Below are positions 15,293-16,945 of a stretch of DNA of 51,993 bases, piece after piece; position 1 is the stretch's first letter, and every line of letters starts with the position of its first letter. Made by a program: the position numbers and the translations under genes. The DNA comes from a virus (taxonomy: Duplodnaviria > Heunggongvirae > Uroviricota > Caudoviricetes), in the IMG/VR virus record IMGVR_UViG_2850796239_000012; one strand, written 5' to 3'. The notes beneath the pieces are model-generated. The model was not told the DNA's origin, did no database searches, and saw only the letters and a program-made list of their open reading frames with translations.

Positions 15293-15634
15293 TCATTTCT
15301 TATTTTCAGATAGCACCAATCTACATTCTTCTTTTTTTAGAATCGTAAGAGATTGGCCACTATCGGAAAAAGAATAACCGCACTCGAAAGCGAGTTGACG
15401 CAGAGCTATTTCACCATAACTATCACCATGTTCTTTCATTAACTCATCACCAAAATCCGCCTCACGACCATTAGATACAGCGTCCATAGCCGCATTAGAA
15501 ACAGCCCTATTTGTGATCTCTCTCTTGATGATGTAGTTATCAGCCAGTGAGGTGTGCAGTCCAAAAAAATCATTCAGCATTCCACCTACACAAATTGTTG
15601 GAGTCAACACTGCGAGAAGGAATATTTTCTTCAT
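15293..15634 (-). CDS. Hypothetical exported protein (N-terminal signal peptide), moron candidate
   Basis: 113 aa, MKKIFLLAVLTPTICVGG… hydrophobic leader; AT-rich codon usage unlike the flanking tail genes. Confidence 0.45.
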   Translation of the reverse strand: MKKIFLLAVLTPTICVGGMLNDFFGLHTSLADNYIIKREITNRAVSNAAMDAVSNGREADFGDELMKEHGDSYGEIALRQLAFECGYSFSDSGQSLTILKKEECRLVLSENKK

Positions 15635-15669
15635 TACAAATGTCTCTTATAGCTGATTTCTTAAAAAAA

Positions 15670-15912
15670 TTAATTACAGTACGTTGTGCCAGTATTGGTC
15701 GCCTGGCATTCACGATGTACTGCACTCCCATTAATCGTTCCTGTGGTATACGTAGTACCTGTATTGGTTGTATAATATTCTGTTTTAACTGTAGAACCAC
15801 TACTGTCTGTACCAGTACAGTAAGTTGTTCCTGTATTTGAAGTGGTGCATGTTACCGCAGCCACAGAAGACAAAGTCACAAAATATACCAGTAATAAGAT
15901 CCATTTAAGCAT
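15670..15912 (-). CDS. Small secreted Thr/Gly-rich repeat protein, moron candidate
   Basis: Signal peptide MLKWILLLVYFVTLSSVAA then ~60 aa with four NTGTTY(C/T)(T/N)GT-like repeats and 5 Cys; start taken at the internal Met (ORF track begins at 15924). Confidence 0.4.
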   Translation of the reverse strand: MLKWILLLVYFVTLSSVAAVTCTTSNTGTTYCTGTDSSGSTVKTEYYTTNTGTTYTTGTINGSAVHRECQATNTGTTYCN

Positions 15913-16945
15913 TTGGTACCCCACTTATTTTCGCTATCGTATCAGGAGTGAGTAAACTTTTACTCCCTTTAGCCAGGCAAAGCAGGTCCATATACCACGC
16001 CTGCCCTCGGGTGTCGCCAGTATAATCAATGCTGCCCACAATGTAATCACCGTCAGTATTAATGCTGGCAGGCTGTGACATGCCTGGCAGACCGTTAACG
16101 TAGAGATTACCGTCGCTTTCAGACTCATCCAGTCGTGCTGGCGATTTCGCTACCTGGTCATTACTCAAAGAGGCACGGTATACAGATGCCTGATCCAGAC
16201 GAATAAGCCCACCGAGCTTAATATTTGGATTAATCAGACATCTGACATTTACGCCAGCTCCCATCGTCTGCTGTGGCATACTGATAAGCCCGGTGTTAGC
16301 ATTCAACACCGTAGCAACACCAATATATTTATCTTCAGGAACAATATTTACCAGATTATTTTCATACCACCAGTTAGCTTTACACTGCCCTGCGATATGA
16401 TTCATCAACCTTGATGTGTTTTGATAAACAACGCGACCTCGGGGAAATACCGTTTCAGGCATGTCAGGAACTGCACCGGATTCGATGCCATATGGTTCGA
16501 ATGATTTCATACCCAGACTGAAAAGATCGCTGTACTTCCAGCCAGCAGCCACTGTGGTTTTCACACTTGCGTTCAGGTGGCCTTCCCAGCTGTCAATACA
16601 CTGCAACATGATCCAACTGTCTGTGGCATTATCTTTACCAGTGACAGTAAAACGGATATCTCCATTGAATATCATACCAACGTTTTCATCAGGATAATTA
16701 CCTGCTGCATCCGGTTGCCCCTTGTATCCGGCAATAACCTGTATACGCGAAAACTCCTTCTGCATAATCCGGTTCTGAGTGGTAGGAGACAGGTTATAAA
16801 CCTTAAAATTTCCAACAAATCCATTAAATATGGTCGCAGGCATTTTCTGAATATTGAAAGTGACTTTAAGCTCAGAAATTTTTATCCCGTCGCCCTTATC
16901 ATCAACAAGCAATAATTCAAAGTGACGCATCCAGTTTTTCGACAT
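15905..16945 (-). CDS. Tail/baseplate protein (Mu gpP-like position)
   Basis: 346-aa ORF in the tail operon downstream of the tape measure gene; function by position only. Confidence 0.45.
   Translation of the reverse strand: MSKNWMRHFELLLVDDKGDGIKISELKVTFNIQKMPATIFNGFVGNFKVYNLSPTTQNRIMQKEFSRIQVIAGYKGQPDAAGNYPDENVGMIFNGDIRFTVTGKDNATDSWIMLQCIDSWEGHLNASVKTTVAAGWKYSDLFSLGMKSFEPYGIESGAVPDMPETVFPRGRVVYQNTSRLMNHIAGQCKANWWYENNLVNIVPEDKYIGVATVLNANTGLISMPQQTMGAGVNVRCLINPNIKLGGLIRLDQASVYRASLSNDQVAKSPARLDESESDGNLYVNGLPGMSQPASINTDGDYIVGSIDYTGDTRGQAWYMDLLCLAKGSKSLLTPDTIAKISGVPNA

Follow-up and report, generated by a model that had tools for sequence, protein, structure and literature searches.

Cor of phages phi80, N15 and T1 and Llp of phage T5 are exported, receptor-blocking lipoproteins that are encoded beside tail or receptor-binding genes and are thought to counter superinfection at the envelope. 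Cor is also mentioned in the review by Cumby, Davidson and Maxwell (PMC3594210), where morons are defined with reference to Juhala et al. and where gp15 of HK97 is described as a moron inside the tail operon that blocks genome injection by superinfecting related phages and leaves the receptor untouched. In the HXS anti-phage system, the effector HxsA carries short sequence repeats, is processed and located in the periplasm, and keeps phage DNA from entering (PMC13128918). Here, we describe two small genes, A (positions 15670-15912, minus strand) and B (15293-15634, minus strand), on the viral record IMGVR_UViG_2850796239_000012, a stretch of 51,993 nucleotides (nt) from a member of the Caudoviricetes that is called the window in the following and whose minus strand holds a contractile-tail operon. 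Both genes lie within this operon, between the baseplate hub gene and the gene of the membrane-puncturing spike. We read them as independent Sec-exported accessory proteins in a slot maintained throughout a phage lineage, most probably serving superinfection exclusion, a tentative reading to which we assign a probability of roughly 45%, mostly on account of the anatomy and perhaps to one third on account of the specific function.

An initial annotation of the window had proposed two small open reading frames (ORFs) with signal peptides between the baseplate genes and a copy of an insertion sequence (IS) of the IS5 family, and in these respects it was accurate. Both ORFs are present on the minus strand, with the hub gene upstream and, downstream, an IS5-family element with DUF4096 and DDE ORFs that is followed by the spike gene; both products, including the 113-amino-acid (aa) protein of B, have predicted N-terminal signal peptides and look exported. 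The composition is unlike that of the neighbours, as had been stated, with a GC content of 0.38-0.41 over positions 15150-15900, whereas the flanks next to it have about 0.44-0.52 and more distant parts up to 0.55; the stretch is foreign in composition and non-structural. The first ORF had been placed 5 nt upstream of the stop of the preceding tail gene, in agreement with an ATG of A at 15912-15910 and a hub stop codon at 15907-15905. A comparison with related loci showed, however, that the islet is not unique.

This comparison covered the lineage of temperate myoviruses related to Salmonella phage SEN34 and Klebsiella phage Mulock. Based on homologues of the hub protein, with one genome per species, we surveyed 50 Enterobacterales loci with identities of 42-91%, and 42 unbiased loci hold both hub and spike; loci reached via A and B were added to the survey and are not among these 42. 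An AT-rich slot occupies the same position in all 42, and its first gene invariably encodes a predicted exported protein, namely a member of phrog_3443 (37 loci; here called family C, about 110-120 aa with a signal peptide and two invariant Cys), A (two loci), or other lipoproteins or secreted proteins (three loci). In none of these 42 loci is the hub-spike gap empty, and its length is 298-2824 bp over all loci surveyed; the GC content of the slot averages 11 points below that of its flanks, with a deficit of more than 3 points in 49 of 51 loci. Loci bearing A and loci bearing C interleave on the hub identity scale, which indicates several exchanges of the first gene. B, or B2 as its distant form, was found in about 5 of the 42 unbiased loci, always behind A or C, and is an optional later slot gene. 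Three Yokenella loci (L003, L064, L070) have A alone between hub and spike, whereas B without A was seen in others (Pantoea L004/L042, L015, L044, L048, L007) and stands beside phrog_3443 in at least five species; the two are therefore not an obligate pair.

Further slot proteins at the position of A in other species (L023, L024, L028, L032) display the lipoboxes LVTGC, IVAGC, LSGC and LMGC. In two of the 37 family C loci, the phrog_3443 domain forms the C-terminal part of lipoproteins of 288-296 aa with a classical lipobox (L024 6099-6989, L028 6075-6941), which lends independent support to export, and L023 and L032 have lipoproteins of 374-379 aa without this domain at the first slot position. 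Sharing the genomic position, A and phrog_3443 are also alike in their small size, a signal peptide, a Cys 3-4 residues past the cleavage site and a Cys near the C-terminus. A profile-profile comparison, however, aligned only residues 1-24, from the signal peptide to the first Cys, and revealed no detectable homology between the mature parts; with this confined alignment and no PHROG match, A was rejected as a member of phrog_3443. The mature phrog_3443 protein has about 92 aa and 2 Cys compared to 62 aa, 4 Cys and internal repeats in A, and the family is far larger, with at least 786 clusters at 90% identity; A forms 5 clusters at this level and has 3 representatives at 50%.

The product of A is an 80-aa precursor, a Thr-rich repeat peptide with four Cys. 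Its signal peptide (residues 1-18; 15859-15912, minus strand) shows K3, a hydrophobic core and S-V-A ahead of the cleavage site; across homologues its sequence varies, and the basic N-terminus, the hydrophobic core and an invariant Ala18 at -1 are kept. The signal peptides of A and B were judged by inspection of alignments for a basic N-terminus, a hydrophobic core and small residues at -3 and -1, and by this inspection A has the features of a substrate of Sec and signal peptidase I, with conservation of the architecture and not of the sequence. No lipobox ([LVI][ASTVI][GAS]C) is present, the residue before the first Cys being T, E, S or M in the homologues. The mature peptide comprises 62 aa with 22 Thr (35%). 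It had been described as about 60 aa of NTGTTY-like repeats with five Cys, of which length and repeats proved right; there are four Cys (C22, C32, C69, C79), all invariant in homologues, and a fifth Cys is carried by the close variant P0001.

Three NTGTTY units, at residues 26-31, 50-55 and 73-78, follow the pattern [ST]-x-T-G-T-T-Y. The first repeat, TTSNTGTTYC (residues 23-32; 15817-15846, minus strand), is a putative hairpin bracketed by C22 and C32, the second, YTTNTGTTYT (residues 47-56; 15745-15774, minus strand), is a degenerate middle copy without Cys, and the third, QATNTGTTYC (residues 70-79; 15676-15705, minus strand), is bracketed by C69 and C79, Cys pairs spaced by nine residues thus enclosing the first and third units. 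A 6-mer in three copies arose in 798 of 200,000 composition-preserving shuffles, chance matches that we presume to be mostly T runs, and the repeat is also conserved in homologues. The units differ in their codons, with 2-4 identical codons among the 7 shared residues, which argues that they were kept by selection on the protein and do not stem from a recent duplication. Among homologues, the variable unit position shifts in all three units together, giving NTGTTY, ITGTTY and VTGTTY forms. In the distant homologue P0135 (81 aa), all three units read NSFGQ(T/S)Y in place of NTGTTY; that the repeats of one protein change in step despite their different codons points either to contacts of the same kind, perhaps made with a partner of three-fold symmetry, or to concerted evolution. 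An AlphaFold model of A placed strands at residues 20-24 and 30-35 with low confidence.

The open frame of A spans 15670-15924 from a GTG, the ATG at 15912-15910 being the likely start. This start and the hub stop codon (15907-15905) overlap within ATGCTTAA, an arrangement that probably couples the translation of A to that of the hub protein on late transcripts. Of the six frames, this alone stays open throughout the 9 diverged homologues, its ratio of nonsynonymous to synonymous polymorphism (pN/pS) amounts to 0.16-0.30, and in the nine diverged gene copies 60 of 61 third codon positions of the mature part are variable, compared to 34 first and 28 second positions. On this evidence, A is a real gene under purifying selection. 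The possibility raised at the outset, that the repeat ORF could be an antisense artefact, is not borne out by the same low pN/pS and uniquely open frame, and a candidate antisense ORF (plus strand, 15547-15840) was rejected, as in homologues its frames either contain stop codons or reach a pN/pS above 1; the antisense frames open in several loci result from the abundance of ACN threonine codons and lack conservation. PGAP left the stretch of A unannotated in the RefSeq E. coli copies examined, and just one of five A clusters carries an NCBI annotation, as a hypothetical protein of Yokenella.

Relatives of A are few. No exact match was present among about 15 billion predicted proteins. Five relatives, all of 80 aa with 53-91% identity, emerged from 5.8 billion protein clusters, and mature A, used as a query against 1.84 billion representatives in an exhaustive HMMER search, returned three true relatives of 79-81 aa. 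One further weak match of the latter search, P0136 (E 2.5e-5, five stretches), is RCC1-like by eye, and the motif TC..T.TG..YC.G of A resembles its HTCa.TqtGdaYCWG, as in the hairpin of an RCC1 beta-propeller blade. A differs from RCC1 in having three short units only, without the WG.N..GQLG blade half and with no match to Pfam RCC1, and we do not regard P0136 as a homologue; the likeness is probably one of similar hairpins, not of membership. No match to A was found in Pfam, NCBIfam or PHROGs, and PDB sequence profiles yielded nothing significant. Neither A nor B had a PADLOC match at E values up to 0.1 or a tblastn match in 50,697 phage records, and a literature search for the motif or the PHROG numbers retrieved unrelated primer sequences only. 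Judged by these searches, A is a member of no catalogued family and B belongs to an existing, uncharacterised PHROG family, phrog_13007, of unknown function, in line with the initial annotation, which had recognised neither family.

B consists of a signal peptide of about 18 aa and a protein of about 95 residues, with cleavage before G/K-x-L/I-N/D-DFF according to the alignment. It matches phrog_13007 over residues 1-113 (E 3.2e-37; distant B2 form E 1.2e-21), its homologues fall into eight clusters, and PGAP annotates it as hypothetical protein WP_000719142.1. Like A, it is a real gene on which purifying selection acts. The Cys of its signal peptide is absent from homologues, and B therefore shows no lipobox either. 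Its AlphaFold model has a mean pLDDT of 74 and displays a helical hairpin with helices 34-54 and 61-84 of local pLDDT above 85, and the C-terminal part has a conserved pair, Cys85/Cys103. Pfam and NCBIfam gave no match to B, PDB sequence profiles gave nothing significant, and a fold search of the model against PDB and BFVD gave nothing below an E value of about 1. A relationship to the tail-lysozyme inhibitor Spackle of T4 was rejected, since B compared with PDB by sequence profile and fold produced nothing below an E value of about 5; this rules out membership, not an analogous inhibition of the SLT domain of the tape measure. For phrog_3443, PDB sequence profiles likewise produced nothing significant.

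At its downstream edge, the variable slot is closed by a terminator-like hairpin (14288-14311, minus strand), AAAACCCGCC-TTCGAG-TGGGTTTT followed by a T run, located 21 nt before the spike start codon. Such a hairpin is present in the slot of 49 of 51 loci and is conserved in 46 of 47 distinct extracted sequences; in the lineage it takes the form AACCCGC, loop, GCGGGT and T run, just upstream of the ribosome-binding site of the spike gene, and compensatory changes occur in four of the seven stem pairs. Homology between loci begins exactly at the hairpin and all sequence 5' of it is variable; it may be both an operon boundary and a recombination anchor for cargo swapping. In phage P2, one late operon runs from the sheath to hub gene D and another from spike gene V to the fibres, and the operon ends of P2-like phages are known sites of foreign genes. 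The layout found here resembles these two operons joined end to end with a terminator at the junction. The architecture of hub, exported protein, cargo, terminator and spike was not found described in the searchable literature.

In the mechanism that we favour, the slot would close the sheath-to-hub transcription unit on its 3' side, flanked by the hub gene and by the hairpin preceding the spike, and in this prophage A takes the first place usually held by phrog_3443, with B as an optional add-on. The conserved Cys pairs of A and B and the conserved signal architecture imply that, after export and disulfide formation, both would fold in the periplasm, and they would act there or on the envelope. 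They would then most probably hinder related phages after adsorption, when spike, hub and tape measure cross the periplasm; expression in the lysogen from a promoter inside the hub gene would also be possible. By analogy we infer that an exclusion or surface factor, one of the roles initially suggested, is the most plausible reading of the islet, and exclusion at the periplasmic stage was ranked first because of the precedents HK97 gp15, Cor/Llp and HxsA.

Each of these precedents differs from A and B in some respects. Like the islet genes, that of HK97 gp15 lies among the tail genes of a lambdoid temperate phage, has a foreign composition and a terminator behind it, and encodes a small protein directed to the envelope. 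This protein is, however, an inner-membrane YebO-like one, whereas A and B are predicted to be soluble and periplasmic and show no sequence relation to it; moreover, only some relatives carry gp15, in contrast to the never-empty slot. Measured by the moron definition, the slot has a GC content below that of its flanks, and once the IS is discounted the hairpin lies downstream of B as a terminator, shared by the whole slot. B qualifies as extra DNA with its occurrence in a minority of loci, but the first position does not, as A replaces phrog_3443 there, and unlike HK97 gp15 the islet has only a candidate site for a promoter of its own. Cor and Llp are likewise exported phage proteins linked to the tail module, but A and B share no homology with them, lack a lipobox and are linked to hub and spike genes instead of fibre genes. 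HxsA, finally, is a conceptual analogue of A as a small periplasmic repeat protein; it has His-Xaa-Ser repeats, a peptidoglycan-binding domain and two radical SAM (rSAM) maturases, whereas A has NTGTTY hairpins, is phage-encoded and has no maturase genes nearby. Accessory exported proteins in a phage late operon are thus a variant of the known theme of morons and exclusion factors, not a new category.

Several results weigh against an exclusion function. Searches of PADLOC, Pfam, NCBIfam and the PDB, by sequence and fold, revealed no homology to a known exclusion or defence protein. A consensus scan provided a possible internal promoter, the sigma-70-like pair ATTACA-17-TATACT (16019-16047, minus strand; 9-of-12 match) about 100 nt upstream of A, which lies in hub codons for the conserved motif DYIVGSIDYT. 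A hexamer pair scoring at least 9 is present in this hub stretch in 43% of 47 loci, compared to 5% of control windows inside the hub gene, but the protein constraint of the motif alone could explain this conservation, and promoter-like sites are not enriched in the window, with 2 found against 4.4 expected from shuffles. The IS copies described below also count against it, the prophage here being probably decaying or defective. Finally, pairwise identities of family C follow those of the hub (Spearman 0.65) and not those of the spike (0.21; hub against spike 0.26), and together with a slot that is never empty this suits a core phage function better than an optional gene of benefit to the host. 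No pair of loci joins a hub identity of at least 80% with a C protein below 50%. C tracking the hub and not the spike points to a recombination break between slot and spike, with C travelling in the sheath-to-hub module, and its inheritance with this module fits a lineage-conserved role equally as well as classic lysogenic conversion.

These data bear on the alternative that has kept the most weight, namely that the first slot protein serves the late lytic cycle of the phage itself and not the lysogen, A being a functional substitute for phrog_3443. The protein could condition the envelope, modulate the timing of lysis, or mask receptor or entry against the loss of progeny on debris. An exported first gene in every unbiased locus, the coupling of family C to the hub, the overlap of the A start with the hub stop codon, which implies late co-expression, and the presence of phrog_3443 in phages that were deposited as isolates, among them Mulock, SEN34 and GZ7, all speak for it. 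We nevertheless consider it rather unlikely: the replacement of C, A and lipoproteins by one another without homology, the AT-richness and the faster divergence of family C (mean identity 0.50; hub 0.60, spike 0.63) are what accessory or conflict genes typically show. A role in lysis is further opposed by the copy of the same prophage without IS in E. coli FDAARGOS_944, which is situated between ybhA and pgl and displays lambdoid early genes, an ipaH effector gene and a full, separate lysis cassette (holin, the endolysin RrrD lysozyme and an Rz-like protein). With this cassette elsewhere in the prophage, A and B are not the lysis genes, and as no similarity to antiholins or spanins was found either, both were rejected as a spanin or other lysis gene.

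A more far-reaching idea, which we hold to be improbable, is that the gene after the hub represents a new, lineage-wide class of periplasmic proteins that directly contact the injection tip of incoming phages, which has three-fold symmetry (spike, hub or the SLT domain of the tape measure), and thereby gate DNA entry. A would then be a minimal version, with three disulfide-stapled hairpins, co-varying repeats and a threonine-rich face. If true, one "entry lock" could stand in for another, be it phrog_3443, A or a lipoprotein variant, and each would be passed on with the hub module and fit the tail of its own phage.

The remaining explanations fared worse. That A, B or both are minor virion components of the baseplate, with the hydrophobic N-terminus as a membrane-insertion segment during infection, would suit genes between hub and spike and a translational coupling of A to the hub, but we think this very unlikely, since the cleavable signal architecture, the lipobox variants and the conserved Cys pairs indicate export, since replacement by unrelated genes is unusual for fitted parts of a baseplate, and since the spike already has an apex motif of its own. 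Equally slim is the chance that both are lysogenic-conversion factors directed against an animal host, such as an adhesin, a toxin or a factor of immune evasion. The ipaH gene of the IS-free copy does lie near its tail-fibre end, and enteroinvasive E. coli (EIEC) and Shigella boydii are among the carriers; however, a Sec signal by itself delivers to the periplasm only, and A, B or slot equivalents occur in Pantoea, Rahnella, Hafnia, Trabulsiella, Photorhabdus, Rosenbergiella and Yokenella, which include soil-, plant- and insect-associated genera. The initial suggestion of a bacteriocin- or microcin-like toxic peptide A with B as immunity protein or partner fits a small, Cys-stabilised and predicted exported peptide followed by a second small predicted exported protein, but is scarcely credible given that A and B occur independently, that A has a Sec-type signal and not a double-glycine leader, that no exporter was found in any locus and no maturation genes nearby, and that B is a predicted soluble, helical protein, unlike the immunity proteins of peptide toxins, which as a rule are embedded in the membrane.

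The order of genes around the slot is that of a contractile tail throughout, all on the minus strand. Upstream lie the tape measure (17904-19856; annotated by RefSeq as "Lytic transglycosylase catalytic" in the IS-free copy), a Dit-like protein (17254-17904; Pfam Dit_like), a plug (16948-17250; Pfam Pam3_gp18) and, directly upstream of A, the hub (15905-16945; 346 aa, E217 gp41-like, Pfam E217_GP41 at E 3.4e-07 and phrog_196 at E 7e-79). The first gene past the slot encodes the spike (13514-14266; Pfam N-terminal spike domain at E 1.3e-44 and a GpV Apex motif), followed by homologues of the sheath initiator (13161-13514; Pfam Sheath_initiator on the equivalent gene of related loci) and of baseplate J (11962-13161; "baseplate J/gp47" in the annotation of the IS-free copy).

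The 914-bp IS5-family element (14322-15235, minus strand; Pfam DUF4096 and DDE_Tnp_1) was inserted between B and the hairpin, and now parts B from the hairpin and the spike gene; a comparison of its junctions with the IS-free copy (L001) revealed a CTAG target duplication at 14318-14321 and 15236-15239. A second copy of the element lies at 22134-23047 in inverted orientation. In total, the window differs from the IS-free E. coli copy by four IS insertions (4916-7670, 14322-15235, 22134-23047 and 36480-37809), of which that of 2755 bp looks to be of the IS66 family, judged from its ORFs, and that of 1330 bp of the IS3 family (IS2-like). Elsewhere in the prophage, Rfam matches identified a RalA antitoxin small RNA (49416-49594), a sok antisense RNA beside hok (38670-38845), isrK with a C4 antisense RNA (44612-44800), and a four-tRNA cluster upstream of the lysis genes (34671-34978). 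The full islet, at 80% or more of the query, was detected in 6 of 5,426 complete E. coli genomes, and any match in 11.

The slots of related loci hold further genes. A two-gene cassette of 257-263 aa and 123-130 aa, both predicted to be cytoplasmic, was found in four species (L005 5225-6366, L047 5216-6366, L058 5877-7026, L028 7025-8186); it gave no match in Pfam or NCBIfam and no convincing one in PADLOC, and may form a toxin-antitoxin or defence pair. The slot of Serratia sp. Ag1 contains a pair that is Phd/Doc-like by eye (L016 6429-7270), and a pair of genes for 186 aa and about 80 aa is the cargo at two more loci (L009 1891-2693, L013 6504-7294). The Yokenella regensburgei locus with A between hub and spike (L003 1-12800) shows an integrase and a truncated methylase followed by sheath-to-fibre genes, with no head genes, and is either a prophage remnant or a tailocin-like element.

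If no function emerges, A, B and phrog_3443 will stay ordinary orphan phage genes. Still, the locus discloses an annotation gap, as the conserved exported-peptide gene A was missed by standard annotation in the RefSeq copies examined. It also uncovers a rule in widespread prophages of the Enterobacterales, among them those of Escherichia/Shigella, Salmonella, Klebsiella, Serratia, Pantoea and Photorhabdus, by which the gene after the hub encodes a predicted exported protein and a hairpin follows. Variable cargo, including toxin-antitoxin-like and possible defence gene pairs, gathers ahead of this hairpin and makes the slot a defined hotspot. At least three uncharacterised families of predicted exported proteins, phrog_3443, phrog_13007 and A, thereby become candidates for superinfection exclusion or for late-cycle roles at the envelope.

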